From: a virus
Lineage: Duplodnaviria > Caudoviricetes
IMG/VR virus record: IMGVR_UViG_3300036971_000130
Length of the DNA stretch: 64,000 bases
Direction: 5' to 3' (one strand)
In this document: one piece after another, positions 1 to 18,356 of the stretch
Layout of the letters: each line of letters starts with the position of its first letter
How positions within the stretch are numbered: position 1 is the first letter of the stretch
Notes under the pieces: model-generated
Seen by the model: only the letters and a program-made list of their open reading frames with translations
What the model was told of the DNA's origin: nothing
Databases searched by the model: none
Translations under genes and position numbers: made by a program

Positions 1-1288
1 TCACGCCGAGTCCCACAAGATGGACCGAGTCATCATCACGGTGCCGTACATGGCGATCACCGAGCAGACCGCTGACACGTTGCGCTCGATCTACGGCGAC
101 GAGAACATCCTCGAACACCACTCGGGGGTGAGCGAGGCGAACGACACGCTACGTCGACGACTCACGTCCGAGCGTTGGGATGCCCCGGTCGTGGTGACCA
201 CCACCGTGCAGTTGTTCGAGTCCCTGTTCTCCTGCGAGATCCCGAAGATCCGGAAGCTTCACCATCTCGCCAACAGCGTGATCGTGGTCGACGAACCCCA
301 GACGATGCCGCCGCACCTGCTTCGCCAGATCCTCGATTCGCTGCGCTGGTTGGTCGAGCACGCCGGGTCCACTGTCGTCTTCCAGACAGCGACGCAGCCT
401 TCGTTCGGCCTGCTCGATCCGGCGTTCGAGAACGTCCCGGAGTGGGGCACGAACGACATCCCGTCAACGATGCGCCGAGTCGAGTGGAACTTCCAGGACT
501 GGTGGGATGACGACAAGATCGTCCGTGAGGTCGAGAAGCACGACCAGGTGCTCTGTATCGTGAACCAGGTTGTTGCCGCTCAACGGCTGGCGAAGTCGGT
601 TCCTGGGGCCATGTGCCTGACGACCTCGAACCATCAACAGGACCGCCGGAAGACGATCGCTGAGATCAACCGTCGTCTCGCTGCCGGGGAGCCGTGCACG
701 GTGTTCTCGACGCAGCTTGTCGAGGCTGGTGTCGACTTCGACTTCCCGGTCCTGTTCCGTTCGATGGCTCCGCTCACGTCGTTGACGCAGGCCGCTGGTC
801 GCTGCAACCGTCACGGCAAGATCGAGCGTGGAACGGTGACGGTCTTCGAGCACATCGGGTGTCACGGTCCGTCTTCTCTGGTCGGAGCCACGGAACTGAC
901 CAGGCAGATGATCAAGGCGGACAAGGACTTCGATCCGTTGGACACGAAGATCATCGACTTGTGGTACAGCCGCCTCTGGTCCTACGTGAACGCCGACGAA
1001 CATCCGATCGACAGGTCACGGAAGGCGCTGACGTACCGGGTGACCGACGATCTGTTCCGGATGATCGACGAGACCGTTCAGGTGGTCATCGACACTCCGG
1101 AGAGTCGGTCCGCCATGGACAGTGGTGACCACCGCAAGGTAGCTTCACTGACGGTGGCGATCCCACCGAAGATCGCTGCACAAGCAGCAAACCTCGGCCT
1201 TCTCATCGAAGAAGGCGACCATACGATCTGGGGTGGGAAGTACGACCCCGTGATCGGTCTGGTGAGACCTGAGACGGAAGACACATGA
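1..1288 (+). CDS. cas3: Cas3 helicase, type I-C (5' part outside window)
   Basis: SF2 motifs VVDEPQ, TATQP, STQLVEAGVDFDF, QAAGRCNRHG; frame open at window start; first gene of cas operon. Confidence 0.92.
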   Translation, partial: HAESHKMDRVIITVPYMAITEQTADTLRSIYGDENILEHHSGVSEANDTLRRRLTSERWDAPVVVTTTVQLFESLFSCEIPKIRKLHHLANSVIVVDEPQTMPPHLLRQILDSLRWLVEHAGSTVVFQTATQPSFGLLDPAFENVPEWGTNDIPSTMRRVEWNFQDWWDDDKIVREVEKHDQVLCIVNQVVAAQRLAKSVPGAMCLTTSNHQQDRRKTIAEINRRLAAGEPCTVFSTQLVEAGVDFDFPVLFRSMAPLTSLTQAAGRCNRHGKIERGTVTVFEHIGCHGPSSLVGATELTRQMIKADKDFDPLDTKIIDLWYSRLWSYVNADEHPIDRSRKALTYRVTDDLFRMIDETVQVVIDTPESRSAMDSGDHRKVASLTVAIPPKIAAQAANLGLLIEEGDHTIWGGKYDPVIGLVRPETEDT

Positions 1289-1905
1289 CCATTGACGTTC
1301 GCATGAGTTCTGAGTACGCATGCTTCTCACGACCGGAGTTCCCGGCGGAGAAGACCTCGTATCCGATCATCACCCCTCCCGCTGCTGTCGGAGCGATCTC
1401 GGCGGTCTTCTGGAAGCCCGAGTTCATGTGGAAGGTCCGTTCCGTGAAGCTTCTGGCCGAGCCGGAATGGATGACCTACCGGATCAACGGCGTGAAGGAG
1501 AAGCTCCCGGTCGGGCGCATCACCGACACCTTCGGGCAGATCGACGCCATCGCCAGTCAGACCCAGATCGGCCATCTCGTACTGGTGAAGCCAGCGTACG
1601 AGGTGACCTTCGACATCACCCTGAAGCCGTGGGCGACGAAGTCGAAGTTGGCGTACTTCGATCAGGCGCAACGACGACTCGATCGAGGGGCCTTCTTCAA
1701 GCCTCCGTACCTCGGGATGCGTGAGCACATGGCGGAGGTCGAACCTGGCACCGGTGAGGCCCCGGTCGCCTTCACCTTGCCGGTTGGTCCGATGGTCCAC
1801 TCGTACGAGTTCGACGCTGACGGGAACGTCTCGAAGACCCGCTTCTTCGATGCTAAGATCATCAACGGCGTGATGGATGTTCCGGATCGTGGTACCGCCC
1901 AGTGA
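1285..1905 (+). CDS. cas5: Cas5c/Cas5d
   Basis: YACFSRPEF..EKTSYPIITPPAAVG..SAVFWKPE, PYLGMRE; ATGA overlap with cas3. Confidence 0.93.
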   Translation: MTIDVRMSSEYACFSRPEFPAEKTSYPIITPPAAVGAISAVFWKPEFMWKVRSVKLLAEPEWMTYRINGVKEKLPVGRITDTFGQIDAIASQTQIGHLVLVKPAYEVTFDITLKPWATKSKLAYFDQAQRRLDRGAFFKPPYLGMREHMAEVEPGTGEAPVAFTLPVGPMVHSYEFDADGNVSKTRFFDAKIINGVMDVPDRGTAQ

Positions 1906-3527
1906 CGATCTACCGTGACCTCGTGGCGTGGACCCACACCGACGAAGGCAGAGAAGTCGCAGGTGAGACCCAGATCGGGTTCAAGCTGAAGACCCTCTCC
2001 GGGATCATCCACATCGAGTCCGCTCCTGATGGGGCGATCAAGGGCACTCCGACGATGACCTTCATCGACCCCGATGAGAAGGTCAGGGCGCTGATGCCTC
2101 ACGTCAAGAGGTCCGTGAACGTGGAGCCCGCTCTCGGTGACGACACCGTCGACTACCTGTTCGGTGGCTTCGTGCCGATGCCGAACGACTCTGAGGCGAA
2201 GATCAGCCGAGGGGCGGAACGGGCCGAGAAGCTTCACGAAGCTGCCGTAGCCCTCGCCCGCCGGTGGTCCGACGAGACCGACTCACCGATCGCCCGTACC
2301 GTCGTCGACTTCATGGAGGGCGACTGGGGGTTCGATCTCACGAACACCAAGAGCCGCTCGAACCCGTACCGACTGGTCGTGAACGGCGAAGTCGTGACCG
2401 AGACGGCCGAGTTCCGGACCTGGTGGTCCGACTACATGAGCCGGGATCTCGACACCGGGATCTGCTGGGCGTGTGACCGTGAAGCGAAGCTCGTGAGGCT
2501 GCTCACCCAGGTGACGATCCCTGGTGCCAGCACGACCGGCACGACCCTGTCGACGATCGACAAGACCTACGCCGAATCCTGGGGTCGCAAGGCCGCAGCC
2601 GACATCTGCGTCGACTGCGACAGCAGGATCAGCAAGGCGATCACCGGTCTGGCCCGAAGCAGAGACCACCAGCGCATCGTCGGTGGTCGAGTCATCCTCT
2701 GGTGGTCGATGAACCACGTCACCGAGTCGTTGATCCCGAACCTGATCTCCGGCGACCTCAGCTTCGGTGATCTCGTGAAGATGGCTGAGAACGGCCTCGG
2801 CGGGAACACGGACTTGGACGCACTACATGTCCTGGTCCTGAAGCCGAACGCTGGTCGCACCTCGATCTACGGGTATCAGACGATCACGTTCGAGCAGATG
2901 GTCGACAGGTTCGCTGAATGGTCTGAGATCGCCACTGTCGACGAGGTCAACTACCCGCTGTGGAAGATCGCCAAAGCGATCCCGACCAACGGCACGTCAG
3001 ATCCTCTCCCTGGCCGGTTCGAGGCCGAGATGTTGACGTGGATCATGTCCATGTCGAAGGGGTTCGAGATCAACCCTGCCGTCATCCGGCGCATCCAGAA
3101 CTTCGACCCGAAGCCTCTGACGGGACCGGAGATCATCCTCCTGAACGCCTACCTGAAGGACACCATGAACGAGCAAGCCGAGAAGTGGGGCGAGATGTTC
3201 TTCCTCTACGCCCAAGCTTCCTTCCGGGCGAACGGATCTGACCGCACGATCCTGAGCCGGTATCGCATGGCGATGAGGAACCCTCGTCGAGCGATGGTGG
3301 TGCTCGAACCTGGGTTCCAGCGGAATCTTCAGACGGCTCTCAGCCGAGGACGACCGTCCACGTTCCTCGCCAAGCGGATGGCGGAACTGTCGATCGACCT
3401 AGGTGAACTCCCATCGAACGCCGATGAGCGTTTCCAGTCAGCGTTCGTCCTCGGATTCCACTCCGCCAAGCACGCCCACTTCCAGTACATCCAGCAGAAG
3501 GACTCCACTGATGACCTCCCCGAATGA
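1902..3527 (+). CDS. cas8c: Cas8c/Csd1 large subunit
   Basis: Position between cas5 and cas7; CxxC pairs, ESWG, PNAGRTSI, AFVLGF. Confidence 0.85.
   Translation: MTIYRDLVAWTHTDEGREVAGETQIGFKLKTLSGIIHIESAPDGAIKGTPTMTFIDPDEKVRALMPHVKRSVNVEPALGDDTVDYLFGGFVPMPNDSEAKISRGAERAEKLHEAAVALARRWSDETDSPIARTVVDFMEGDWGFDLTNTKSRSNPYRLVVNGEVVTETAEFRTWWSDYMSRDLDTGICWACDREAKLVRLLTQVTIPGASTTGTTLSTIDKTYAESWGRKAAADICVDCDSRISKAITGLARSRDHQRIVGGRVILWWSMNHVTESLIPNLISGDLSFGDLVKMAENGLGGNTDLDALHVLVLKPNAGRTSIYGYQTITFEQMVDRFAEWSEIATVDEVNYPLWKIAKAIPTNGTSDPLPGRFEAEMLTWIMSMSKGFEINPAVIRRIQNFDPKPLTGPEIILLNAYLKDTMNEQAEKWGEMFFLYAQASFRANGSDRTILSRYRMAMRNPRRAMVVLEPGFQRNLQTALSRGRPSTFLAKRMAELSIDLGELPSNADERFQSAFVLGFHSAKHAHFQYIQQKDSTDDLPE
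3165..3527 (+). CDS. cas11: Probable internally translated Cas11 (in-frame within cas8c)
   Basis: AAGGA SD 4 nt before in-frame ATG 3165; 120-aa C-terminal product; known I-C arrangement. Confidence 0.6.
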   Translation: MNEQAEKWGEMFFLYAQASFRANGSDRTILSRYRMAMRNPRRAMVVLEPGFQRNLQTALSRGRPSTFLAKRMAELSIDLGELPSNADERFQSAFVLGFHSAKHAHFQYIQQKDSTDDLPE

Positions 3528-4362
3528 CCCGACTGTCCGCCACGACTTCACCTTGCTGGTGGAGGCCGTCGACGCCAACCCGAACGGTGACCCGGATCTC
3601 GACAACGAGCCCCGCCGTGATCCGACGACCGGCCACGGGCTCATCACCGACGTGTCCGTGAAGCGTCGCCTCCGTGACTTCGTCCTCGTCGCCAAGGACG
3701 GTGACGACAGGTTCGACATCCAGGTGAAGCGAGGGCAGGCCCTCAACACGATCTCCGAGGAAGCTCGGGCAGCGATCCCGGAGAAGGCCGAGGACCGGGC
3801 CGAGAAGATCGTCGAGTGGCTTCAGAACCGCTACTTCGACATCCGGATGTTCGGCGCTGTCCTCGGAACCGGCAACGCCAAGCCGAGGCTCCCGAGCCTC
3901 ACCGGCCCTGTCCAGATCGGCATGGGGCGCTCCGTCGACCCGATCGAGACCTACGACATCTGCATCACCCGTCTGGTCGTCACCGACGAGAAGGACAAGG
4001 AGAAGGAGCAGACGATGGGCCGCAAGTGGGTGACCCCGTACGGTCTCTACGTCGTCCACGGCACCTACTCCGGCATCCTCGGTGCGAAGTCGGGTGTCAC
4101 CGAAGAAGACCTCGACTGCATGTGGCAGGGTCTCTCCGGTCCCATGTTCGACCTGGCAGCGTCGACCTCGAAGTTCGGTGTCTCGACTCGTGGCCTCATC
4201 GTCCACTCGCACGAGACCCCGATGGGCAACGCTTCCCGTGCCGCTGTCCAGGCGACCACGAAGATCACCCCGAACCACGATGGCGCTCCCCGATCCTTCG
4301 AGGACTACACCATCACCTTCGAAGACATGCCGTCGAAGGTGACCCGGACGATTCTCGTCTGA
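3511..4362 (+). CDS. cas7: Cas7c/Csd2
   Basis: ANPNGDPD..NEPRRD, ITDVSVKRRLRD, DIRMFGAV, TMGRKW. Confidence 0.95.
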   Translation: MTSPNDPTVRHDFTLLVEAVDANPNGDPDLDNEPRRDPTTGHGLITDVSVKRRLRDFVLVAKDGDDRFDIQVKRGQALNTISEEARAAIPEKAEDRAEKIVEWLQNRYFDIRMFGAVLGTGNAKPRLPSLTGPVQIGMGRSVDPIETYDICITRLVVTDEKDKEKEQTMGRKWVTPYGLYVVHGTYSGILGAKSGVTEEDLDCMWQGLSGPMFDLAASTSKFGVSTRGLIVHSHETPMGNASRAAVQATTKITPNHDGAPRSFEDYTITFEDMPSKVTRTILV

Positions 4363-4514
4363 GTTGCGAGAGGTCCGATGACGACCCGACCGTTCACCGC
4401 ACCACCCCAGATCACAGACCTGCTGGTGAGGCAGATGATCAGTGAATCAGGGACCTCTCGCAACAACGGTCGTTCCCGCAGGTCAGAGATGACCGAAACC
4501 AGGAACGGTCGAAA

Positions 4515-4774
4515 CGCCGTCTACGGACGGCGAGGATTTCAACGGACGGCGAGGATCGGAACATCATCACGTCGATGCGACCGAGTCGCATTGCGCCGTC
4601 ACCAGACGGCGAGAATCGCAACAAGCCATCTGCCTCCGCAAGAGGTCCCGTCCCTACCGGGGCGGGAGAATTGGAACTACCCTGCCGAATCCACGTCGTC
4701 ACCAGGCGACGAGAATCGAAACATGGACCATGTCAACCCACTGTCCGCCGTCTCCGGGCGGCGAGGATCGCAAC
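4515..4774 (+). CRISPR. Degenerate type I-C mini-array: 5 full + 1 half repeat, intervals 16-31 nt
   Basis: Repeats 4515-43, 4544-62 (half), 4594-4622, 4646-77, 4694-4722, 4746-74: 7-9 bp hairpin plus tail resembling GAGGATCGCAAC. Confidence 0.85.
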
Positions 4775-4962
4775 ACCGACGGCAGGGACCACGAGAAGGA
4801 GACGATCGGCAGCCGGGACATCCCCGGTTACCGCCCAGTCAAGGTGGCCGACGACGAGGACGAGGACGAGGTGCTGGACGCCATCGGCCCCATCAGCATC
4901 CACGACCTGATCAACCAGTTCTTCGGCTGACGCCCGGTCAGATCCTCGATCTGACGTTTCGC

Positions 4963-4997
4963 ACGACGACCCCGGACGCTATGTTCGGGGTCGTCGT
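4963..4997. terminator. Long GC hairpin after the array, probable terminator
   Basis: ACGACGACCCCGGAC-gctat-GTTCGGGGTCGTCGT. Confidence 0.6.
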
Positions 4998-5112
4998 CGT
5001 TCACCACCCATGATGGGTGTGCACCATTCGCATCAACCAAGAGAGCCCGAAATCCAGACATAGCGCCCAGGCGGGGACATACCACCCATGATGGGTGGAG
5101 GAAAGCATCACC

Positions 5113-5916
5113 ATGAGCATCACCAAAGAGCGAGTCCCCATCAACCAAACACCCGTCGGACCACCGGAGTACCTCTCCCACTCGTCGCTGTCCGCCTACG
5201 ACTTCTGCCCCGAATCCTGGTGGCTCTCGAAGGTGGCGCACGTCGAATCGGAGGTCAGGGGCTCCGACATGGTCGGTCAGGCGATCCACCGTGTCTCGGA
5301 GACCGCCGGAACCGAAGAAGACGCAGAGAAGGTCATCGAGGACATCCTCGCCAGCACCGACGACGATGCAGTCGTCAGCGACTTCGAGGATGTCCTCCGG
5401 TCGGTGATGAACTGGGACATGACGAACCCGTTGGACAAGAGGGCCGAGACCGAGGTCCCGATCCACGGAACGATCGCCGGGTACCGGCTGCGAGGTGAGA
5501 TCGACTCCATCGTCGATGATCCGGACGGATGCCGTGTTATCGAGGATCTGAAGACCACGAAGCGTCTTCCCACGCCGGTCTCGAAGCTCGGGTACGGGGA
5601 CAACGAGTCCGATCCGATCTACGCCGCTCGGGTGACTCGCCAGGTGATGATCTACGCCCTGATGGCCCGATCGAACGGGCAGCGGATCGACAAGGTGAGG
5701 ATGCTGTACCCTCGGTACCAGCACGTCATCGAGGTGGACCTCAGGACGGAACGTGGGAAGAACCTCCTGATCGAAGCGGAACGCTTCGTCAAGGACAACG
5801 CTGACCGCATCAAGCGTTCGTGCCTCGAAGGTCGTGTGGTCGCAACCCCGACTCCTAGGAAGTGCGACTCGTGCAACGTGCGCCAGCACTGCACTGCCTC
5901 GATGGCATCGACCTAA
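5113..5916 (+). CDS. Cas4/RecB-like PD-(D/E)XK nuclease with 4-Cys cluster
   Basis: LSHSSLSAYDFCP, GEIDSIV, IEDLKT, QxxxY, CDSCxxxxxC; GGAGG SD. Confidence 0.8.
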   Translation: MSITKERVPINQTPVGPPEYLSHSSLSAYDFCPESWWLSKVAHVESEVRGSDMVGQAIHRVSETAGTEEDAEKVIEDILASTDDDAVVSDFEDVLRSVMNWDMTNPLDKRAETEVPIHGTIAGYRLRGEIDSIVDDPDGCRVIEDLKTTKRLPTPVSKLGYGDNESDPIYAARVTRQVMIYALMARSNGQRIDKVRMLYPRYQHVIEVDLRTERGKNLLIEAERFVKDNADRIKRSCLEGRVVATPTPRKCDSCNVRQHCTASMAST

Positions 5917-6236: not shown

Positions 6237-6431
6237 ATGGCTGACAAGGAACAGAAGCAGCAGGAGGTCCAAGACTTCCTGGAAGGCAACGGTCGCTACA
6301 TCGTCACCGGGTTCGCCATCCTGATCGCCTTGGGTCTCGCCTGGACGGTCATCGACACAGGGATCGTCCTGTTCGTCGTGCTCGTGGCGATCGGAGCGAT
6401 GGCCTGGTACGTGTGGGGGACCAAGGAATGA
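6237..6431 (+). CDS. Small two-TM membrane protein
   Basis: Hydrophobic hairpin; coupled to next gene. Confidence 0.6.
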   Translation: MADKEQKQQEVQDFLEGNGRYIVTGFAILIALGLAWTVIDTGIVLFVVLVAIGAMAWYVWGTKE

Positions 6432-6982
6432 CGATGAACGTGCTCGGCAAGGTCGCCGGGTCCCTCAACGACAAGTCCGCTCGGAAGTGGGCGAAGAACG
6501 ACAAGGTCATCGAGGCTGGTGCCCGAGGCGAAGCCCGTACTGCCGATGCGCTCCTGAACGGGCGTGACGGAACCATCATGCACGACATGAGGATTCCTGG
6601 TGAGCGAGCCAACATCGACCACATCGTCGTGTCCGGCAACAAGGTCTGGCTCATCGACTCGAAGTGGTGGAAGGGCGGTCGGTACATGACCGTCTTCGGG
6701 AAGACCTACCGTGGCTTCACCCGTGTCCCCCACACCGAGAAGGACACGATGGCTCGGGCCTACGAGAAGGTCGAACGCCACCTGCACGAGAAGGGGGTCG
6801 ACTTCGACTTGCAGACGCCGATCATCGTCGTCTGGTCGCATGAGCCTCTGAAGCTCGGTCTCGCCAAGATCCCCGGTGCTCGCCTCATCGCAGGCGGCAG
6901 CTTCCGTGGTCAGGCCAGGAAGCTGTTCAAGGCCGACGCCAACAACGAGATCATCGACGCCCTGAGGGAACTCGTGATCTGA
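6428..6982 (+). CDS. NERD-domain nuclease-like protein
   Basis: GARGE, HDMRIPG, NIDHIVV, LIDSKWW. Confidence 0.85.
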   Translation: MTMNVLGKVAGSLNDKSARKWAKNDKVIEAGARGEARTADALLNGRDGTIMHDMRIPGERANIDHIVVSGNKVWLIDSKWWKGGRYMTVFGKTYRGFTRVPHTEKDTMARAYEKVERHLHEKGVDFDLQTPIIVVWSHEPLKLGLAKIPGARLIAGGSFRGQARKLFKADANNEIIDALRELVI

Positions 6983-9900
6983 TGGCACAGCCATTTCAGC
7001 AACCGTCACATGCACCTCTGATCATCGGCGTCTCCGCTCTGATCGGGTGCGGCTTCGCCTACCTCGGGTTCCCAGCCTTCGCCATCATCTGGCTGGGGTT
7101 CGTGGTCGCCGCCTACTTGGAACCACCGGTGATCCTCACCGGGAAGAAAGACCAGTACGGCTCTCCGACCCCACTCCACGATGGAGAGTCGAAGCGGCTC
7201 AGATCGTTTGCGTTCTGGCGTGAACTTCGCACGTCCCTTATTGTGCCGAATGCATCTTGGCTCCCAGGATGGCCGATCCTGGGTTCGTTCATCGGGGCTG
7301 TTGTAGCGGCACTCATCGGCTGGTCCTTGCCGGTGATGTTCGTTCAGCTTCAGCCGGTGAACGCTGTGTGCGGCTTCATCGTCATCTCGGCGGTCATGTC
7401 CGCTCGACGCAAGACGATGGCCGACGGCGACGTGTACGGAGGCGCTCGCCTCAACACCCTCGATGACTACCTGAAGGAGAATCGGCCGATCGCCGTGATC
7501 TCCGTGCTGCTGGGGATCGTCGTTGCAGTCCTCGTTGCAACGAAGGTGCCGCAGTGGCAGGAGACCTCCGCCAAGCAGGTGTTGACGGATCAGAAGACCG
7601 GTGAGGTTGTTCCTCACTCGGCTACGACCATGCCTCCGCCGCAGACGACCGAGGCGGGATCGCCACCGACGATCGAGTACGTGATCCCGACGGTCGACAT
7701 CACTCCGGACCCGAAAGCGACGGCAACGAAGAACCCTGACCTCATCGTCTCCGGTCTCGTCGATTACGGCACTCGATCCATCATCCCACTGACCATCGCA
7801 GGTTTCTTCATCGGGTTCTTCGCTCTGACCGCCCGGCCGTGGTCGAAGCGTTCGATCGAGCACTGGAAGGAGGTTGTCGCTGCCCGAGCGGAGTGGCAGC
7901 CTCGTTGGCGTGCCGCCGGGCTGAAGGACGACACCTTCCCGTGGCTGGTCGAACGTGAGCGGGTCGGCCAGTTCCAGGTGGACACGTTCATCGCTGATCC
8001 ATCGCTGGCCGCTCAGACGATCATCGACACGAAGGCGAACGCCATCAGGCCGACGATCGGCGCTGGCATGAACATGGTGGCCTTGTCGACCCCCGATGCT
8101 CGCAACGGTGAGCCGGTTCCCGGCACCGTGCATCTCCGTCGGTTCCAGATCGTCGTGTGGGACGGTGACCTCACGGACTTCTCGGACCCGGACGCCGACA
8201 TGGACGAGTTGACGCTCTCCGCCCGGATCGGGTTCGCTGAAGCGTGTGATGCTTCGGGGATGCTTCGCTCGGAGATCGTCGAGATCACCCCGATGCACGA
8301 CCTGTCCCCGGTCCCCTCGGACGAGGACGAAGACGACGAAGGCGATGACCTTCCGGCGATTCCCGACATCACCCCGCAGAAGAACTACGGTGCCGTCTGG
8401 GCTGTCCAAACCACGATGGGTGGCGCAACCCGGACGTTCCGGGAGAACTCCCGTGGGGCGATCGCAGGTCGCTTCGGAGTCGACTGCATCATCGACGACC
8501 GTCGCCCCGACCTGAACGGCGTCCTGTTCCTCGGGACCCTGCTCGAAGACGGCGTCACCGGACGTGACGTGCCCGAGCGGTTCACGATGCCGTCGCCTGA
8601 CCGTGAGCCCAACTGGCCGTCCATGTTCCGTCACATCGACATGGAGGACCACTACCGGACGACCTGGCAGCAGTTCCTCCCGCAGCCCGAGATGTACCCC
8701 ACCCCGCACTGGGACTTGGAGATGGACCGGGAGATCATCACGAAGAAGGGCAAGTCTGTCGTGCACGGCCTGGCCTTCGTCTGTCGCCAGGGTGTCCCGC
8801 CGAACACCTTCACGAACGCCAAGACGGAGAAGAACCTCGCCACCACCTGGGAGGCTCCGCTCATGGTCAACATGAACTCCTTCCGGCACAACATCGGCAC
8901 CGGCCAGTCAGCCAAGCGCCAGGACATCGTCAGCCACGCTCAGGCTATCTTCCTGTCCTGGTCGACCGATCACATCCCGTCCTCGATCGTCAACCTCCCG
9001 TTGCAGGTCCAGGGGAACTCTCCGGGCAGCACGTCGGTGAAGTACAGCGCCTCGGTGCCTTCGGAGCCGATCATCTGGGTGATCCAGCACTACGTGAACA
9101 AGGCGTTCGACCAGGTGAAGAAGCCTCGTCCGGACGTGATGACGGCGAAGTGCCTGACCCGCAAGGACTCGCCGGAAGCTCTCTGGGAGATCGAACTGAA
9201 GGTCGTCGGTGGCGAGACCATCGAGACCCTCCGTTCCGCCACTGAGCGTCTCCGAGTAGCTTTCCAGGTGCCGTGGTGCCTGGTGACCACCTGGGAGAGC
9301 GGTGTCACGATCTTCGTCGGAGGCGACCCGTTCAACCCGAAGACGAACCTGGTGAACCCTGACCGTGACGCTGCCCGCCTGAAGGGCTACTCGTGGGAGC
9401 AGGCGTTCATCTCCTGTGGCATCTCCGGCTCCGACGGTGTCATGCCGAAGTTGCAGGACTACAAGCTCCTACCGTCGAACAACGACATCGAGGTACTGAA
9501 GTTCTCGCTGCCGCCCGGCATTTCCCCGACGACGTTCAAGGAGAAGAAGGACAAGCTCTCCACAGCGAAGGGGTACACCTACATCGAGATCGTAGACTCG
9601 GCTGACCCGAAGGTTCTCGAAATGATGGTCTGCGCCGAAGATCCGACTCCGACGGCTGTGATGATCGGCCCCGCTGAACTCGACATCATCGAGAACTCGT
9701 CCGGCGTCCCGTTCGCCACGAACATCCTCGGTGAGGTCGTCGCCTACGACCCGAAGGAATCGCCTCACCTGCTCCTGGCTGGTTCCTCAGGAGGTGGAAA
9801 AAGCGTCTTGGCTCAGGTGTTGCTCTACGGCGCTCTGAAGCGTGGCTGGGACATCTACGTGATGGACCCGATGAAGGGCGCTGCCGACTTCAGCTTCACG

Positions 9901-11103
9901 AAGGACTACGCCCTCGGGTTCTGCACCACGTACTTCGAGGCAGCGGGCACGCTCATGCACATCTACGAGAACGTGGTTCGTGCTCGTGTGGCCTTGAACG
10001 GCCAGTACGGCGCTTCGTCGTTCATGGATCTGCCGGAGGAAGTCCGCCCGAACCGAGTGCTCATCTTCATCGACGAGTTCACGTCGCTCCTTCAGATGGA
10101 TGCAGTCCCGAAGGGCGATGACCCGGACACGATCCAGGAAGCCGAGATCATGTCCGAGCGCAACGAGGCTCGTCGGGCCATCTCGTCGATGGTCGGCAAG
10201 ATCGTTCGTGAAGCTCGATCCGCTGGTGTCACCATCGCCATCGGTGCTCAGGCGATGAAGTCCGACTTCCTGAAGACGCTCCCTGGTGGTGCTGGCATGA
10301 AGGACTCGATGGCTCGTATCCTCATGGGTAACGCAAGCCACGGCGAACGTGCGTCGGCGCTCCGGATGGGCCACAAGGCTCAGGCGATGCCGACAGCGAT
10401 CATCCCGAAGGGCCGAGGCTGGTGGGAGTCTTCCACGGCTGGTTCAGCTTCGGTCATCCAGGTGTGGTTCGCCACGCAGAGCACGTACGCTGCCGCTCTC
10501 GAAGGCATGCCTCTCGCTGACCCGGATCGGATCATCGACCAGGAGCAGTTCTCCGAGCCGGTCGTCCACTCGTTCATGCAAGAGGCCGAGGAAGGCACCT
10601 CGTTCACTGATGGCGTCTTCGTCGAGGACGATGACGAGGTCATCGAACTCGGTTCGTTCCAGGGGTTCACGATCCCTGACGCCCCGGATGACGAGCGTGT
10701 CGCTCCGTTCGTGATCGAGACCGTCGACGACGATGACGAAGGGTTCTCGTCCTTCGATGACCTCCCAGAGATCGTCGTCGACGAACCTGTCCGTCCGGCG
10801 GTGGTGACGGTCGGGTTCGCCGGTGAGGCTGGTGACGTGCAGATCCAGTCGATCGACGAGTTCCTGGCGTGGCTGGACACGGCTGTCGGTTCTGACGTGG
10901 TCGTGAACGTCGCCTCGGACCAGGCGGATGAACTGGTTGGCACGGTGGAGGCGATCTTCGGCCCTGGCATGGTCAGCTTCGTCGTGACCGAACCGGAACC
11001 AGAGCCCGAACCAGAACCGGTACGTCGAGTCTCGCCGTCCAGAATGACGTGGGGAGCCGAGATCGGCAACGGTGGGTTCGATGATGACGACTTCCTGTCC
11101 TGA
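6982..11103 (+). CDS. Membrane-anchored FtsK/SpoIIIE-family ATPase
   Basis: N-terminal TMs; PHLLLAGSSGGGKS, MDPMKG, IFIDEF, EARSAGV, PKGRG; acidic tail. Confidence 0.85.
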   Translation: MAQPFQQPSHAPLIIGVSALIGCGFAYLGFPAFAIIWLGFVVAAYLEPPVILTGKKDQYGSPTPLHDGESKRLRSFAFWRELRTSLIVPNASWLPGWPILGSFIGAVVAALIGWSLPVMFVQLQPVNAVCGFIVISAVMSARRKTMADGDVYGGARLNTLDDYLKENRPIAVISVLLGIVVAVLVATKVPQWQETSAKQVLTDQKTGEVVPHSATTMPPPQTTEAGSPPTIEYVIPTVDITPDPKATATKNPDLIVSGLVDYGTRSIIPLTIAGFFIGFFALTARPWSKRSIEHWKEVVAARAEWQPRWRAAGLKDDTFPWLVERERVGQFQVDTFIADPSLAAQTIIDTKANAIRPTIGAGMNMVALSTPDARNGEPVPGTVHLRRFQIVVWDGDLTDFSDPDADMDELTLSARIGFAEACDASGMLRSEIVEITPMHDLSPVPSDEDEDDEGDDLPAIPDITPQKNYGAVWAVQTTMGGATRTFRENSRGAIAGRFGVDCIIDDRRPDLNGVLFLGTLLEDGVTGRDVPERFTMPSPDREPNWPSMFRHIDMEDHYRTTWQQFLPQPEMYPTPHWDLEMDREIITKKGKSVVHGLAFVCRQGVPPNTFTNAKTEKNLATTWEAPLMVNMNSFRHNIGTGQSAKRQDIVSHAQAIFLSWSTDHIPSSIVNLPLQVQGNSPGSTSVKYSASVPSEPIIWVIQHYVNKAFDQVKKPRPDVMTAKCLTRKDSPEALWEIELKVVGGETIETLRSATERLRVAFQVPWCLVTTWESGVTIFVGGDPFNPKTNLVNPDRDAARLKGYSWEQAFISCGISGSDGVMPKLQDYKLLPSNNDIEVLKFSLPPGISPTTFKEKKDKLSTAKGYTYIEIVDSADPKVLEMMVCAEDPTPTAVMIGPAELDIIENSSGVPFATNILGEVVAYDPKESPHLLLAGSSGGGKSVLAQVLLYGALKRGWDIYVMDPMKGAADFSFTKDYALGFCTTYFEAAGTLMHIYENVVRARVALNGQYGASSFMDLPEEVRPNRVLIFIDEFTSLLQMDAVPKGDDPDTIQEAEIMSERNEARRAISSMVGKIVREARSAGVTIAIGAQAMKSDFLKTLPGGAGMKDSMARILMGNASHGERASALRMGHKAQAMPTAIIPKGRGWWESSTAGSASVIQVWFATQSTYAAALEGMPLADPDRIIDQEQFSEPVVHSFMQEAEEGTSFTDGVFVEDDDEVIELGSFQGFTIPDAPDDERVAPFVIETVDDDDEGFSSFDDLPEIVVDEPVRPAVVTVGFAGEAGDVQIQSIDEFLAWLDTAVGSDVVVNVASDQADELVGTVEAIFGPGMVSFVVTEPEPEPEPEPVRRVSPSRMTWGAEIGNGGFDDDDFLS

Positions 11104-13464: not shown

Positions 13465-13535
13465 GGGGGTATGTTCCAATGGTAGGATGACGGTCTCCAA
13501 AACCGACAGTCCGGGTTCGATTCCTGGTACCCCTG
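13465..13535 (+). tRNA. tRNA-Trp(CCA)
   Basis: Cloverleaf, loop CTCCAAA. Confidence 0.9.
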
Positions 13536-13712
13536 CAAAGGCGTGAGAATACGGGTGTCGAGGCCCGTCCGACTTCCCCAAGCTGTCGGTCATCTAAGGA
13601 AGATACACGTCACTATTCCTCTCTCGGTTGGCCGTCAACCTGATCGAGTAACGTGGAAGTCGTCGTAGGCGACAAGGCTCGTTCCGTGCCGAACGGAGCA
13701 GTTGACAGCCAT

Positions 13713-13786
<74 letters not shown>

Positions 13787-13788
13787 CT

Positions 13789-13865
13789 GGCGGGGTAGAG
13801 CAGTTTGGTAGCTCGACAGCCTCATAAGCTGTAGGTCACGGGATCGAAGCCCGTCCCCGCACCCA
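13789..13865 (+). tRNA. tRNA-Met(CAT), initiator-like
   Basis: 1:72 mismatch and fMet-type D arm, but no 3GC anticodon pairs; T loop ATCGAAG. Confidence 0.8.
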
Positions 13866-14178
13866 TCTCGTCATCGCCGGATCGGCAAAATCCGGGTCTC
13901 GGAAAACCGGGGTATGCTGCCAGCCTCACAGGCTGGTTAGCTCTCGGCCAGTACGAGGCAGATGACACAACCACAGCAACTCACTGCGTCCTTGCCAGGT
14001 GAGGTGGGTCGCTGTGGAAGTTCTCTGTCAGCCGGGACGGCAATCCCGGTGCTTGGAAGGGGACCCTGGTCGGCGCTTCGGCGTATCAGAAGGGGTCCCT
14101 GGTCCTGGCACGATAGGCAACCGAGCGAAGGAGGCTCCGCACTTGCCGGTGCGGAGCCGATCTCCCTCGGAAGTTCTT

Positions 14179-14251
14179 GGGGTCGTAGCTCAGTTGGTAG
14201 AGCACCTGCCTTGCAAGCAGGATGTCAGGGGTTCGATTCCCCTCGGCTCCA
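14179..14251 (+). tRNA. tRNA-Ala(TGC)
   Basis: loop CTTGCAA, G3:U70. Confidence 0.93.
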
Positions 14252-14533
14252 CAGGGACCGTGATGGTCCAAACAGAACAACCCGTCATCTCTTGCGTAGG
14301 GGTAAGTTGGCACTTCCTCAAAGCCACCGCTATCGGGCGGCAATGCTGGGGTCGGACCCAGCCCGGCGGCTGAAACCGTCGGTCGGCTAAATCGGACGTG
14401 GGAGAAGTCGTTTCGTCAGGGAACGACTACTGTCGAGCGTGAACCCAGGGCGATGTCCTGGGAGGTGTAGGAACGGGAATGGCTGACCGGAGGGTCGTAG
14501 ATGCCAAGCTACGGCCACTGGAAGGCCCCTCAT

Positions 14534-14611
14534 GGTGTTCGTAGCTCAGTTGGCTAGAGCGCAGCGTTGTGGTCGCTGAGGTCGCGGGTTCGAACCCCGT
14601 CGTTCACCCCA
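14534..14611 (+). tRNA. tRNA-His(GTG)
   Basis: G-1, loop TTGTGGT, CCA. Confidence 0.88.
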
Positions 14612-14748
14612 ATCGTCAGGTCGGAAGACCTTGGACGTAGAACATCCTGCATCGAAAGTGATCGAGCAGGTTGCTTCCTGACCGCCGACAGGGAAGCGTA
14701 ATGCCGTGGACAAGGGAGCTAGCCCCAACTCCACAAAGTCGGCTCCAT

Positions 14749-14821
14749 GCCCGGATAGCTCAGTTGGCAGAGCGTCCGTCTGAAAAGCGGAAGGTCACCG
14801 GATCGACTCCGGTTCCGGGCA
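14749..14821 (+). tRNA. tRNA-Phe(GAA)
   Basis: loop CTGAAAA. Confidence 0.92.
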
Positions 14822-14954
14822 CGCAAACCGGCCGCAAGCCGGTGGAGGTCGGAGGCATCCGACACAACGGGTTCGCTGACACCCCGTAGTCACGGTCGAC
14901 CGTGAAGAACTGGTCGGCGGGTAGGTATACCCGTCGATACGGAGTCAGTGCCAT

Positions 14955-15030
14955 GCGGTTGTAGCTCAGTCTGGTTAGAGCGTCTCGTTGCCAAAGAAGG
15001 TCGAGGGTTCGAATCCCTCCTGCCGCTCCA
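14955..15030 (+). tRNA. tRNA-Gly(GCC), anticodon stem defective
   Basis: TCTCG-TTGCCAA-AGA: 3' strand about 2 nt short. Confidence 0.7.
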
Positions 15031-15223
15031 TGACCCCCGCAAGGGAGCAGCGTCGGGTTGATCTCCGACAGGTGAAGGACCGTCGTAGTCCTTCGTGAGA
15101 CGGTGTCGAAACCGTCGACCATCCGTGAACGTGACGGGAAGGTGAAGTGGCCGTCTTGCACCGGTCCGGCTTCCGTAAGGGGGTCGAGATGAAGTGAAGC
15201 ATCGTCACCGATACGACACACAT

Positions 15224-15296
15224 GGGGGTGTAGCTCAGTTGGTAGAGCGCCTGGCTCTTAACCAGGATGTCGTGGGTTCGATCCCCTCCGCCCCTA
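15224..15296 (+). tRNA. tRNA-Lys(CTT)
   Basis: loop CTCTTAA. Confidence 0.92.
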
Positions 15297-15333
15297 CCGC
15301 TCTTGTGGACAGAGCCGAAACGTCCACCTTCCT

Positions 15334-15406
15334 TCCCAGGTAGCTCAACTGGTAGAGCATCCGGCTGTTAACCGGAGGGTTGCAGGTTCGAACCCTGCCC
15401 TGGGAG
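15334..15406 (+). tRNA. tRNA-Asn(GTT)
   Basis: loop CTGTTAA. Confidence 0.93.
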
Positions 15407-15557
15407 CTTGCAGTGATCTCCTTCACGACGGTGTTCCGCCATCGAAGTGAAGTCCGGTGAGCGACGACGTGAGAAACCGTTGCGATCCAACAAGGAACGT
15501 AGGTTCCTGGTATGCGGAGACAGGATGTCTCGATCCGGCCAGATCGAACGACCTGTA

Positions 15558-15635
15558 GTGTCTGTAGCTCAGTTCGGTCAGAGCGCCTGTCGTCGAGACA
15601 GGAGGTCGCTGGTTCGATTCCAGTCAGGTCCACCA
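15558..15635 (+). tRNA. Atypical tRNA, anticodon TCG (Arg?), G33, weak acceptor stem
   Basis: CCTGT-CGTCGAG-ACAGG; D and T arms normal; ACCA end. Confidence 0.6.
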
Positions 15636-15636
15636 T

Positions 15637-15710
15637 GCCGGTATAGCTCAGTTGGCTAGAGCGTCCCGCTCATAACGGGGAGGCCACTGGTTCGAGTCCA
15701 GTTACCGGTA
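15637..15710 (+). tRNA. tRNA-CAT (elongator Met or Ile2)
   Basis: loop CTCATAA. Confidence 0.88.
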
Positions 15711-15741
15711 CTGGTCCGCCGCAGACCTACTGCGACAACAA

Positions 15742-15818
15742 CGGGACGTGGCTCAGCTTGGTAGAGCGGGCGCTTCGGGGGCGTCAGGTCGTGGGTTCAA
15801 ATCCCGCCGTCCCGACCA
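15742..15818 (+). tRNA. tRNA-Pro(CGG)
   Basis: loop TTCGGGG. Confidence 0.9.
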
Positions 15819-15866
15819 AAGGTCAGTCGCAGACCTTGTGCCCATTCGGGCCAACTGCGACAACAA

Positions 15867-15941
15867 CGGGACGTAGCTCAGTTTGGCTAGAGCGGGCGCT
15901 TTGGGAGCGTCAGGCCGTCGGTTCGAGTCCGGCCGTCCCGA
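15867..15941 (+). tRNA. tRNA-Pro(TGG)
   Basis: loop TTTGGGA. Confidence 0.92.
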
Positions 15942-15977
15942 CAAGGTCAGCACGAACCTCGATCGTGCAAGGAACAA

Positions 15978-16051
15978 CCCTGGTTAGCTCAGAGGTAGAG
16001 CGCCGCCATGTCAGGCGGAGGTCAGTGTATCGAAAGCACTACTGGGGGCCA
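15978..16051 (+). tRNA. Atypical tRNA-Asp(GTC)-like, 6-nt anticodon loop
   Basis: CCGCC-ATGTCA-GGCGG; T loop ATCGAAA; GCCA end. Confidence 0.6.
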
Positions 16052-16052
16052 T

Positions 16053-16127
16053 GCACGTATAGCTCAGCGGCAGAGCGGCTCCCTTACAAGGAGTTGGTCG
16101 GGGGTTCGAGTCCCTCTGCGTGTACCA
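16053..16127 (+). tRNA. tRNA-Val(TAC)
   Basis: loop CTTACAA. Confidence 0.92.
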
Positions 16128-16226
16128 AAGTCAGCGGACAGGCTTCGGTATCCGCCATCCCCGGTGATGTCAAAATCCGGCGCTTCGTGGGAAGCGACAG
16201 CGTCCAGAAGGTCGCACCCACACTGA

Positions 16227-16300
16227 CCGGATGTAGCTCAATTGGAGAGAGTGCCTGACTACGAATCAGGAGGTTGGGGGTTCGAGTCCCTCCGTCCGGG
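16227..16300 (+). tRNA. tRNA-Arg(ACG)
   Basis: loop CTACGAA. Confidence 0.9.
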
Positions 16301-16467
16301 CTAGGGGGACCAGCGGGTCGCTACCGTTGGGCGCTCCTGAACCGACATGAATCGACGACTAGCTACCGTCAGCAACTCACCCCGCATGAAGGTGAGCTTC
16401 GGTGTGAGACCCGATGTCGGTACCATCTCCCGTCGAATGACGGCCCCGAGAGTGGCACTCTCAACAC

Positions 16468-16543
16468 GCCGCTTTAGCTCAGTTGGTAGAGCGCACCCAT
16501 GGTAAGGGTGAGGTGACCGGTTCGATCCCGGTAGGCGGCTCCA
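16468..16543 (+). tRNA. tRNA-Thr(GGT)
   Basis: loop ATGGTAA. Confidence 0.9.
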
Positions 16544-16544
16544 T

Positions 16545-16617
16545 TTCGGGATAGTTCAGTTGGTAGAACGCCTGGCTCTGAACCAGGAGGTCGGAGGTTC
16601 GAACCCTTCTCCCGAAG
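16545..16617 (+). tRNA. tRNA-Gln(CTG)
   Basis: loop CTCTGAA. Confidence 0.92.
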
Positions 16618-16674
16618 CAACGCTCGGCTTGTCCGGGCAGAACACCACCTTCTTGCTCGACGGGAAGGTCTCCA

Positions 16675-16751
16675 CGGGACATGGCGCAGCTTGGTAGCGC
16701 ACCGCTCTGGGGGAGCGGGGGTCGTCGGTTCAAATCCGGCTGTCCCGACCA
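16675..16751 (+). tRNA. tRNA-Pro(GGG)
   Basis: loop CTGGGGG. Confidence 0.9.
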
Positions 16752-16843
16752 AGAGGTCTGAAGGGCGATCGTGGGCACCCGTCAACGGTCGATACCACCA
16801 CCTCTGATCCAGCCGAAGGCCGAAGATAGGTTGGGTCGACCAT

Positions 16844-16919
16844 CACAGCGTAGCCAAGGTGGTCAAGGCAACCGTCTGCAAAACGGGAGATAGGGGTTCA
16901 ACTCCCCTCGCTGTGTCCA
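16844..16919 (+). tRNA. tRNA-Cys(GCA)
   Basis: loop CTGCAAA, U73. Confidence 0.9.
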
Positions 16920-16972
16920 AGGATGTCGAAGTTGGGCATCGTCTGCAATGCCACCCATGATGGGTGTATCAA

Positions 16973-17051
16973 GTCCTCGTAGCTCAGTCTGGTCCAGAGC
17001 GCCGCCCTGTCAAGGCGGAGGTCGCCGGTTCAAATCCGGTCGGGGACGCCA
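16973..17051 (+). tRNA. tRNA-Asp(GTC)
   Basis: loop CTGTCAA; internal promoter at 16933-16961. Confidence 0.93.
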
Positions 17052-17097
17052 TCCACATCTGGTGGTCGCTTGACGAGAGCGTATCTCGTCCCAACAT

Positions 17098-17173
17098 GCC
17101 CCGTTGGTCTAGTCAGGTTCAGGACGTTGGACTCTCAATCCAAAGGTCACGGGTTCAAATCCCGTACGGGGTA
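17098..17173 (+). tRNA. tRNA-Glu(CTC)
   Basis: loop CTCTCAA. Confidence 0.92.
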
Positions 17174-17207
17174 CTCAACGCCCGGCGAGAGCGCATCTTG
17201 CCAACAG

Positions 17208-17280
17208 GCCCCGGTCGTCTAGCGGCCTAGGACGCTGGCCTTTCAAGCCGGTAGCACGGGTTCGAATCCCGTTCGGGGTG
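17208..17280 (+). tRNA. tRNA-Glu(TTC)
   Basis: loop CTTTCAA. Confidence 0.92.
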
Positions 17281-17283
17281 CTA

Positions 17284-17361
17284 CGAGAAGTTCTGGTGAA
17301 GCAACTGGTGTTGCGGCCTCTCCGAGAGAGGTGCAGGCGGGTTCGATTCCCGTCACCTCGA
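17284..17361 (+). ncRNA. tRNA-like element with broken acceptor stem
   Basis: GCGGG-TTCGATT-CCCGT T arm, D-like and anticodon-like hairpins; only 4 contiguous acceptor pairs. Confidence 0.5.
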
Positions 17362-17512
17362 ACATCGTCAAGGCACGGCACGAGCCATTCCGATCGGATG
17401 GGGAGGGTCGTCGAGTAGGGCGTGAAGGCGATGGTCCACGACTGACCGCAGACCGTACATCTGCAACCTCCACGCACCCTCCTGCTCCGTTCCAGGCAGC
17501 CATGGAACCCTT

Positions 17513-17589
17513 GCGGATGTAGCTCAGTTGGTTAGAGCGTCTGGTTCCCAACCAGAAGGTCGAGGATTCGAGTTCCTCCATCCGCTCCA
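17513..17589 (+). tRNA. tRNA-Gly(CCC)
   Basis: loop TTCCCAA. Confidence 0.92.
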
Positions 17590-17591
17590 AT

Positions 17592-17682
17592 GGAAGGTAG
17601 GTCAGATATTGGTTTGCTGCGCCAGCCTCGAAAACTGGTTGGGTGAAAGTCCATGAGGGTTCGATTCCCTTGCCTTCCGCCA
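17592..17682 (+). tRNA. tRNA-Ser(CGA)
   Basis: long variable arm, loop CTCGAAA, GCCA. Confidence 0.88.
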
Positions 17683-17696
17683 TCTCAAACACCCTT

Positions 17697-17787
17697 GGAG
17701 GGTAGGCAACTGTTGGTTCGTTGCAACGGTCTGGAAAGCCGTGGGGTCTTCGGGCTCCCAAGGGTTCGATTCCCTTACCCTCCGCCA
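17697..17787 (+). tRNA. tRNA-Ser(GGA)
   Basis: loop CTGGAAA. Confidence 0.9.
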
Positions 17788-17795
17788 GACTTCTT

Positions 17796-17886
17796 GGAGA
17801 GTAGGCGTACTACTGGTTTGTCGCGCTCGGTTGCTACCCGAGTTGGGTGAAAGTCCATGAGGGTTCGATTCCCTTGCTCTCCGCCA
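17796..17886 (+). tRNA. tRNA-Ser(GCT)
   Basis: loop TTGCTAC. Confidence 0.88.
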
Positions 17887-17896
17887 TCGCACCCTT

Positions 17897-17986: not shown

Positions 17987-18011
17987 CTCGCTTGGTGACT
18001 AGGTTGAGGCC

Positions 18012-18323: not shown

Positions 18324-18356
18324 ACAACCACCAACCGATCGAGAAAGGATCGCCCG

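Follow-up and report, generated by a model that had tools for sequence, protein, structure and literature searches.

A type I-C CRISPR-Cas locus without nearby adaptation genes carries shortened guides that match host-lineage genes and may bind them without cutting

CRISPR-Cas (clusters of regularly interspaced short palindromic repeats and their associated proteins) systems without Cas1, Cas2 and Cas4 have been described in huge phages and other mobile elements, and the genes for sigma-70 and glycyl-tRNA synthetase of the host are targets of huge-phage guides (Al-Shayeb et al. 2020, PMC7162821). Among plasmid CRISPR-Cas loci, 36% have adaptation modules, and the spacers of plasmids are directed mostly at other plasmids (Pinilla-Redondo et al. 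2021, PMC9071438). According to the summary in PMC11656645, a type IV-A guide of a megaplasmid reportedly silences host pilN. The locus presented below lies at the start of a 64,000-nucleotide (nt) stretch (the window) of the IMG/VR virus record IMGVR_UViG_3300036971_000130. Judged by its genes and repeats, it is an interference-only type I-C CRISPR-Cas locus, and its shortened guides may bind conserved genes of the host lineage without cutting them. With 6,490 nt upstream of the window, taken from a 24-kb assembly (L001) that is identical to the window DNA and extends it, the readable DNA amounts to 70.5 kb of an element of about 233 kb. A first-pass annotation, made from the window alone, had proposed an adaptation-less type I-C effector with a small array of fixed guides; this description stands, the array being fixed as far as three near-identical samples show.

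The effector genes open the window:

2-1288, plus strand: C-terminal 428 codons of cas3; the full gene, of 689 amino acids (aa), lies at L001:5709-7778 and starts 781 nt before the window
1285-1905, plus strand: cas5c, type I-C pre-crRNA (precursor CRISPR RNA) endonuclease, 206 aa (PF09704, 40.5 bits)
1902-3527, plus strand: cas8c (Csd1), 541 aa, very diverged (PF09709, 120.5 bits)
3511-4362, plus strand: cas7 (Csd2), 283 aa, ATG at 3511 (PF05107, 239 bits; TIGR02589, 207.7 bits, above cutoff)

In this order, cas3-cas5c-cas8c-cas7, every start overlaps the preceding stop, and no Cas6-like open reading frame (ORF) was found within the operon. The matches to PF09704, PF09709 and PF05107 all exceed their gathering cutoffs. 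Cas3 scores above the cutoffs of both TIGR01596 (cas3_HD, 79.9 bits) and TIGR01587 (cas3_core, 117.8 bits) and aligns with the type I-C Cas3 of Neisseria lactamica (8g9u_P, 253 bits). The nuclease motifs (H, HD, H, HH, D..D) are all conserved in this alignment, as are the helicase motifs I, II, III and VI; the HD domain that the first-pass annotation had suggested looking for upstream is thus present, with its nuclease motifs intact. Cas5c matches over its full length the 205-aa Cas5 of the solved I-C Cascade (8g9s/8g9t, 87 bits). Because the proteins have diverged, Cas5c and Cas8c remain below the NCBIfam cutoffs of TIGR01876 (80.8 bits, cutoff 85) and TIGR01863 (72.8 bits, cutoff 218). For Cas8c, an exhaustive search of 1.8 billion representatives gave as best non-self relative a protein 27% identical (E = 1e-37), encoded on a 3-kb contig without an array, and a word-index search returned only Cas8c itself at E < 1e-10. 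This low identity suggests long maintenance without adaptation genes.

The nearest relatives of Cas7 are at most 48% identical and are located in complete I-C loci with cas4-cas1-cas2. When the Cas1, Cas2 and Cas4 proteins of the nearest I-C loci were used as tblastn queries, no match was obtained at E ≤ 1 in the 70.5 kb, the positive control with Cas7 giving 1.6e-77; the absence of cas1 and cas2 first noted in the window is therefore confirmed and extends to the 6.5 kb upstream. Close relatives that could have informed on the conservation of the guides were sought and none was found, the nearest Cas7 loci being ordinary complete I-C loci. A weakly Cas4-like PD-(D/E)XK nuclease gene at 5095-5916 was rejected as a cas4: it has its own promoter-like boxes (a ACCACCCATGATGGGTG pair at 5003-5019 and 5081-5097), its best matches are phage-type exonuclease families and the Cas4 proteins of the nearest loci miss it.

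Downstream of cas7, an array extends over 4512-4774:

4512-4543, plus strand: repeat R1 (hairpin -14.4 kcal/mol, z = -4.5)
4544-4562, plus strand: half repeat R1' (3' stem half and handle), a 19-nt tandem duplication
4563-4593, plus strand: guide S1, 28-31 nt, antisense of a short-chain dehydrogenase/reductase gene; its reverse complement encodes R-L-G-R-I-D-V-M
4591-4622, plus strand: repeat R2 (hairpin -13.3 kcal/mol, z = -3.3)
4623-4646, plus strand: guide S2, 21-24 nt, target searches at chance level
4644-4677, plus strand: repeat R3, with a perfect stem of its own (8-9 bp), similar to what is seen in repeats of the nearest I-C clade (hairpin -18.1 kcal/mol)
4678-4693, plus strand: guide S3, 13-16 nt, too short to trace
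4691-4722, plus strand: repeat R4, carrying a compensated C-G to T-A pair
4723-4747, plus strand: guide S4, 23-25 nt of rpoB, sense strand, in the rifampicin-resistance region (codons M-D-(Q to H)-V-N-P-L-S)
4743-4774, plus strand: repeat R5, inside codons 5-15 of a 66-aa ORF

Six non-identical repeats had been counted in the first-pass annotation. They are indeed non-identical and keep hairpin and handle, with the correction that five are full type I-C-like repeats and one is a half. In each full repeat, 3 nt precede a stem of 7-9 bp with a loop of 4 nt, and a tail of 11 nt follows, AG[GA]AT[CT][GT]NAAC, of which the handle positions AG.AT...AAC are common to all five; the hairpins are in the same register. 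The 18-nt 3' half occurs in five exact copies in the array and nowhere else in the window; with up to two mismatches allowed, eight matches were observed, a total that none of 100 shuffles reached. R1 also gives a sub-threshold match to the Rfam family CRISPR-DR29 (20.4 bits). The full repeats differ from each other at 6-12 of 32 positions (19-38%). In the nearest clade (locus L170), the repeats are a uniform 37 nt with the handle GGAGTCTCAAC, and nearest-clade repeats close their stem with GGGGCGGGA. Among the matches listed, searches of IMG/VR and of species-representative genomes with the repeat pattern returned single chance matches alone. A related complete I-C locus beside an integrase (L171:10104-10289) has three non-identical repeats, the others 89% and 68% identical to the first, at a normal spacing of 71-77 nt, and is thus a further case in this clade of a small array with heterogeneous repeats.

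Compensatory and GU changes had been put forward as covariation that preserves the stem. Among R1, R2, R4 and R5, three stem changes are seen, a swap of C-G for T-A and, twice, U-G in place of U-A, and pairing is kept in all three. However, a hairpin survives three random transitions 21% of the time, and variable sites make up 3/14 stem positions against 10/18 unpaired positions (Fisher p = 0.075), so that the statistical side of the claim is weak. The half-repeat duplication is confirmed as a 19-nt tandem duplication, present in two copies here and in three in sample L002 (an assembly of the Joint Genome Institute, JGI), which is the sole difference in 3.5 kb.

Between the end of a handle and the start of the next stem, the guide segments span 31, 24, 16 and 23 nt, in agreement with three of the four intervals given previously, the second having been read as 23 nt; under a 32-nt repeat model they are 28, 21, 13 and 20 nt. 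As had been stated, the guides are shorter than in normal I-C arrays, 16-31 nt versus spacers of 34-41 nt in the nearest clade.

The origin of the guides was traced through the probable host lineage. The RNase P RNA of the element has its best match in the sampled Actinomycetota, 78% identical, in Acidimicrobiales, and this order is probably the host lineage. When the array was compared by BLAST with 121 genomes of the order with the best RNase P RNA match, the matches piled up on two guides, S1 and S4.

S4 matches the rpoB of one genome (G493) at 24 of 26 positions, within a 1,202-aa ORF that scores 1,604 bits against the rpoB model; the target encodes the peptide QFMDQVNPLSGL. The 3 nt preceding the match are TTC, a Phe codon, in three genome matches that were found without fixing the flank. 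TTC is the canonical protospacer-adjacent motif (PAM) of type I-C. It was built into the pattern of the scans used to count rpoB sites, in metagenome contigs and in 251 Acidimicrobiales genomes. In the metagenome scan, TTC followed by the 20-nt guide with position 9 free was found on 19 contigs, in rpoB in 19/19 cases, the best match (contig L207) being 24/25 over 4723-4747. In the 251 genomes, the PAM and 20 nt of S4 with up to three mismatches were found in 115, nearly always as a single site per genome, compared with 0 for the reversed control; the tally includes three genomes flagged as unpublished (G440, G536 and G561), on which the examples named here do not depend. From near-identical RpoB proteins, the rpoB-bearing organisms are Acidimicrobiales or Acidimicrobiia. 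The S4 protospacer was absent from IMG/VR, and a literature search found no natural mobile-element guide against rpoB.

One position sets S4 apart from its targets: position 9 (T4731), a T in the guide, is occupied by G or A in every natural rpoB seen. S4 thus differs from natural rpoB at 1 of 23-25 positions, whereas the repeats on either side of it are unlike each other at 9 of 32, which argues against plain neutral decay. The first-pass annotation had read TTGACA in the reverse complement of this guide as a promoter-like target; it is the complement of rpoB Val-Asn codons, and the promoter reading is abandoned.

S1 matches cluster on genes with the motif GRIDV(L/M)xNNAG, the full motif being found at the match in 4 of the 12 loci fetched. 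The best match, in genome G478, is identical at 25 of 28 positions, with mismatches at guide positions 18, 24 and 28 and the 5' flank TTG, and the gene beneath it is an adh_short (171 bits). The flank is TTG in the copies found, versus TTC for S4. With every sixth position left free, the G478 site was the only S1 match in 401 genomes, and there was no control match. Because the short-chain dehydrogenase family is huge, the match tells which kind of gene was copied, not which gene. No S1 protospacer beyond chance was found in IMG/VR, JGI metagenome contigs, GenBank phages or PLSDB. G478 was considered as a host of the element and rejected, its similarity being limited to tRNA-level matches and one gene at 72% identity.

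Type I Cascade leaves every sixth guide position unpaired, as stated for type I-F1 (bioRxiv 10.1101/2023.03.03.530964). In both S1 (4563-4590) and S4 (4723-4742), every sixth guide position coincides with the third codon position of the source gene, a register expected by chance in both traced guides about once in nine; the guides would hence tolerate half of the synonymous changes in their targets. In S4, positions 6, 12 and 18 are wobble sites, and most of the natural variation of the rpoB target sits there.

For S2, 401 genomes gave one match (with three mismatches) versus five control matches, and IMG/VR gave a single match with an ACG flank, both at chance level. Neither S2 nor S3 matched rpoB or rpoC. 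A complementarity of S2 to 4417-4437 (segment I1; 17/21) was dropped, since by estimate chance alone would yield about as many such pairs in 900 nt. When the 350 nt upstream of cas3 and the rest of the 70.5 kb were searched, none of the guides gave a PAM-flanked seed match beyond chance level. The matches previously called for are therefore at hand for S1 and S4, both traced outside the element, but not for S2, at chance level, or S3, too short. At least two guides are, by these matches, ordinary acquired spacers derived from protospacers in chromosomal genes of the host lineage, rpoB (with TTC) and a dehydrogenase gene, and the idea that they arose as structure conserved without sequence is not upheld. 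The guides have retained the PAM-proximal 16-31 nt and lost the PAM-distal part.

The last repeat lies within a short coding region, a point that corrects the earlier view of the array:

4730-4930, plus strand: acidic ORF of 66 aa, predicted disordered; third-position GC 0.83-0.93 in frame from about 4723 to 4930
4937-4999, plus strand: two strong hairpins 3' of the ORF stop (-41.9 kcal/mol, z = -5.3), likely the end of the transcription unit

The ORF was called by gene callers in two other assemblies, has no other in-frame start until GTG 4844 and has no relative in Pfam, NCBIfam or Atlas. Its ATG contains T4731, the single S4 mismatch to rpoB, so that the start codon owes its existence to this mismatch. 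Because the hairpins follow the ORF stop and the next promoter-like boxes (those preceding the PD-(D/E)XK gene) lie beyond them, cas genes, array and ORF together have the appearance of a single transcription unit. Cleavage by Cas5c at R5 would be expected to part the start codon from the rest of the ORF; the overlap of a repeat with an ORF and its start codon would be a simple means of linking translation to the processing of the RNA. The start of cas3 is overlapped by a very acidic ORF of 35 codons (MDLMDYF...DDEGSSEGTPE) at L001:5605-5712 (window -885 to -778) and, with the 66-aa ORF, is the second small acidic ORF flanking the cas unit.

Two further features lie between cas7 and R1:

4363-4464, plus strand: 102-nt structured element directly 3' of the cas7 stop, with a 14-bp perfect basal stem (4363-4376/4451-4464)
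4486-4514, plus strand: two remnants that resemble handles, GAGATGACCGAAAC and AACGGTCGAAAC, perhaps the decayed ends of older repeats (read from the sequence, weak)

The 102-nt element comprises inverted repeat I5 and direct repeat D12 and folds at -43.9 kcal/mol (z = -4.5), a value that none of 200 shuffles equalled. Its 3' arm ends in the handle-like CTCTCGCAAC, of which the 5' arm is the exact complement, and it contains a promoter-like box (4400-4412) that resembles the box at 5002-5014. Possible roles are those of a promoter for the array, a site of processing or a structure that counters the handle.

The reading favoured here, with a probability of about 0.45, is that attenuated guides bind host genes without cutting. 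The operon, the array and the small acidic ORF would be transcribed together, Cas5c would cleave at the base of each conserved hairpin, and short Cascade complexes would assemble and bind their targets, rpoB foremost. With a short R-loop and the position-9 mismatch, Cas3 would not be licensed, and the element would grip or dampen conserved host genes, the chromosome not being shredded. In type I-F1, spacers of at least 14 nt assemble and bind, and a shortened R-loop abolishes cutting (PMC7296934); the repression proposed in the first-pass annotation would thus, by analogy with other type I systems, occur without cutting. Since cutting of rpoB by a plasmid would be lethal to its host, binding without cutting is the reading in accord with an intact machinery as well as with a surviving host. 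Few host sequences are less mutable than these targets, hence a fixed array would need no adaptation genes. An effector intact through deep divergence, the retention of all hairpins and the nearly unchanged S4 argue that the guides may still be in use.

Several points weigh against binding without cutting. The short-R-loop rule comes from type I-F1 and the locus is type I-C; moreover, pure repression does not require an intact Cas3. No natural rpoB matches S4 at position 9, S4 would pair with the template strand within the gene, away from the promoter, and S2 and S3 have no traced target. The stem covariation is real and suggestive, statistically weak and no proof. A canonical array with adaptation genes could lie in the ~163 kb of the element beyond the readable DNA. 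Slippage is frequent at the half repeat on the leader side, which leaves guide 1 lacking a local upstream hairpin for 5' processing. Finally, the slippage polymorphism, the zero-length first unit, the handle-like remnants at 4486-4514 and the absorption of the last repeat into the ORF are signs of wear. The proposal of fixed guides rather than a decaying array is supported in part.

These same signs also speak for an autoimmunity scar, the main though rather unlikely alternative, in which a complete I-C system on the element acquired host spacers and the survivors shortened them by deletions, changed position 9 and lost cas4-cas1-cas2; the array would now be inert and decaying, the cas genes being not yet broken or serving an array elsewhere. 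An association of self-targeting spacers with array degradation and loss of cas genes is widespread (review PMC6990116). Each of the four guides has been shortened, and to a different length, the first unit is without any spacer and the 19-nt polymorphism indicates a region that is still mutating; the upstream remnants, the repeat absorbed into the ORF and the weak statistics of the covariation point the same way. However, loss of whole units or of a cas gene would have been an easy escape, and four units and four intact genes persist, with perfect hairpins in all five full repeats. S4 is almost unchanged while the repeats diverged by 19-38%, and the divergence of Cas8c implies long retention.

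Because Cas3 is catalytically intact by its motifs and the rpoB target has the canonical TTC PAM, the guides might instead direct Cas3 to the chromosome, either for host takeover by a lytic giant phage or for post-segregational killing, in which a labile inhibitor, for example the 66-aa ORF, restrains a stable Cascade-Cas3. S1 is just ~6 nt below normal length and a small acidic ORF is apparently co-transcribed directly behind the array. In anti-CRISPR discovery screens, self-targeting combined with an effector that is intact usually betrays an encoded inhibitor. Such lethal targeting is nevertheless improbable: the element resembles a conjugative plasmid, not a lytic phage, nothing ties the ORF to Cascade, position 9 is mismatched in every natural target seen and shortened R-loops fail to license cutting in the best-studied case (PMC7296934). 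A host-control or addiction switch, in which a shortened guide parks Cascade on rpoB and R5 doubles as codons 5-15, so that guide maturation and ORF translation exclude each other on a given transcript, is a speculative extension that is slightly harder still to credit; the 66-aa protein would then be produced only if Cas5c or Cascade were in short supply or blocked, and could be an inhibitor or antidote, or a sensor of anti-CRISPR attack. Decoy use, which the first-pass annotation had considered, would have the varied hairpins soak up Cas5c or Cascade belonging to a type I-C system of the host, in the way of RNA anti-CRISPRs and viral CRISPR-like regulatory RNAs. RNAs made of repeats alone and carried by mobile elements do inhibit host systems (PMC10651486; bioRxiv 10.1101/2024.10.29.618823), and the diverse stems and the spacerless unit would suit it. 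It is very improbable, and finds no support here, for the element's own complete effector operon immediately precedes the array, two guides are genuine copies of protospacers next to a PAM and no host array with this repeat was found among the IMG/VR and species-representative matches listed. Least credible of all is autoregulation of the cas genes by a short guide partly complementary to the cas3 promoter, in the manner of CreR/CreA. Degenerate short-guide mini-arrays do regulate cas promoters in types I-B, I-E, I-F and V-A (bioRxiv 10.1101/2023.03.10.532045, 10.1101/2023.03.03.530964), but the searches upstream of cas3 and in the rest of the 70.5 kb gave no PAM-flanked seed match, and for two guides the targets clearly lie outside the element.

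Should the guides be active, this would be a natural mobile element that keeps CRISPR for one hard-wired purpose, the recognition of sequences that its hosts cannot change: the rpoB site with its PAM is present in nearly half of the sampled genomes of the order, and its synonymous variation falls mostly at guide positions that Cascade does not read. Active guides would also explain the long-term function of an array without adaptation genes.

The carrier is a 233,542-bp contig, identified from the self cluster of Cas7; other samples hold the same strain, the assemblies deriving from SRR11827187, SRR11809658 and JGI 3300036955. It looks like a conjugative megaplasmid-like element of ~233 kb and not a phage, though it might be a phage-plasmid. 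A 1,373-aa FtsK/SpoIIIE protein beside the locus has relatives (32-36% identical) exclusively on Micrococcales and Bifidobacterium megaplasmids and none among phages, and in an Arthrobacter plasmid the same NERD-FtsK pair adjoins a type IV secretion coupling protein. This NERD nuclease and FtsK/SpoIIIE pair, at 6413-11103, is syntenic with the conjugation regions of Micrococcales megaplasmids, and a second FtsK-like protein (925 aa) is encoded at 58205-60982. A jumbo phage had first been suggested by the tRNAs, RNase P RNA, ribozyme, Ro60, nicotinamide adenine dinucleotide (NAD)-salvage genes and methylases; the large FtsK-like protein, however, matches megaplasmids only. No near match to the element was found among the GenBank phages searched.

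Other content of the window includes ~39 tRNA genes, all on the plus strand, in three clusters (13465-21333, 25491-25646 and 32669-33300). A complete bacterial class A RNase P RNA (19647-20001, 181 bits) lies among them, and a pistol ribozyme match (20618-20680, 59.3 bits, gathering cutoff 34.5) inside the tRNA region. A Ro60/TROVE protein with a vWA domain is encoded at 21636-23228 (PF25045, 174 bits). Nicotinamide phosphoribosyltransferase and ribose-phosphate pyrophosphokinase, for NAD salvage, and an ADP-ribosylglycohydrolase are encoded on the minus strand at 44433-46807 and 53410-54432, gene content typical of counter-defence against NAD-depleting immunity. Methylases are also encoded in the window.

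The systems of huge phages and mobile elements without Cas1, Cas2 and Cas4 (Al-Shayeb et al. 2020, PMC7162821) are similar in several respects: a large mobile carrier, no adaptation genes (here, in the readable DNA), about six repeats, a type I-C-like Cas5-dependent effector and a guide that matches a core transcription gene, here of the probable host order. The locus described here differs in its conjugative-megaplasmid-like carrier, a Cas3 that is present and intact, the rifampicin-resistance region of rpoB as target, guides of 16-31 nt and non-identical repeats. Its guide S4 strongly matches the rpoB of the inferred host order, with position 9 mismatched in every copy seen. A plasmid guide against a host chromosomal gene has precedent among plasmid class 1 and type IV-A systems (PMC9071438, and the summary in PMC11656645). 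However, type IV has no shredding nuclease, whereas this locus keeps Cas3, and the plasmid class 1 and type IV arrays have normal spacer lengths and uniform repeats, neither of which is the case here. If the guides are active, CRISPR regulation of a host by a plasmid, reported so far for type IV, would extend to a Cas3-bearing type I system.

The regulatory mini-arrays CreA/CreTA and CreR and CRISPR repeat-like regulatory RNAs (bioRxiv 10.1101/2023.03.10.532045, 10.1101/2023.03.03.530964) share degenerate repeats, short or partly complementary guides and a proposed binding without cutting. These mini-arrays carry one guide against a cas or toxin promoter of the same locus, whereas four guides are found here and the traced targets lie inside host coding regions. 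Cases of autoimmunity (Wimmer and Beisel 2020, PMC6990116) also show spacers from the genome of the carrier cell and signs of array degeneration, but here neither the effector genes nor the repeat hairpins are damaged, and conservation is higher in the self-targeting guide than in the repeats that flank it. RNA anti-CRISPRs (Racr) and viral CRISPR-like regulatory RNAs have repeat units that imitate those of the host and lack cognate cas genes, in contrast to the effector operon directly upstream of this array.

With the canonical type I-C systems of Desulfovibrio vulgaris, Bacillus halodurans and N. lactamica (PDB 8g9s, 8g9u, 7kha), the locus shares the order cas3-cas5-cas8c-cas7, the lack of Cas6, the 3' hairpin, an 11-nt handle ending in AAC and a TTC PAM, as read here from the rpoB target. 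In contrast to them, cas4-cas1-cas2 were not found in the 70.5 kb, the repeats are heterogeneous and the guides are 13-31 nt long. Cas3, Cas5c, Cas8c and Cas7 have 689, 206, 541 and 283 aa, compared with ~770, 238, 620 and 283 aa in the nearest clade. The natural series of 16-31 nt guides may offer a test of the R-loop length checkpoint of type I-C, of relevance to type I-C silencing and editing tools. New in this comparison are the target in the rpoB resistance region with a canonical PAM across an entire order, the natural series of guides cut short although Cas3 is intact, the retention of hairpins in heterogeneous repeats and a repeat embedded in an ORF whose start codon falls on the only mismatch of a guide.

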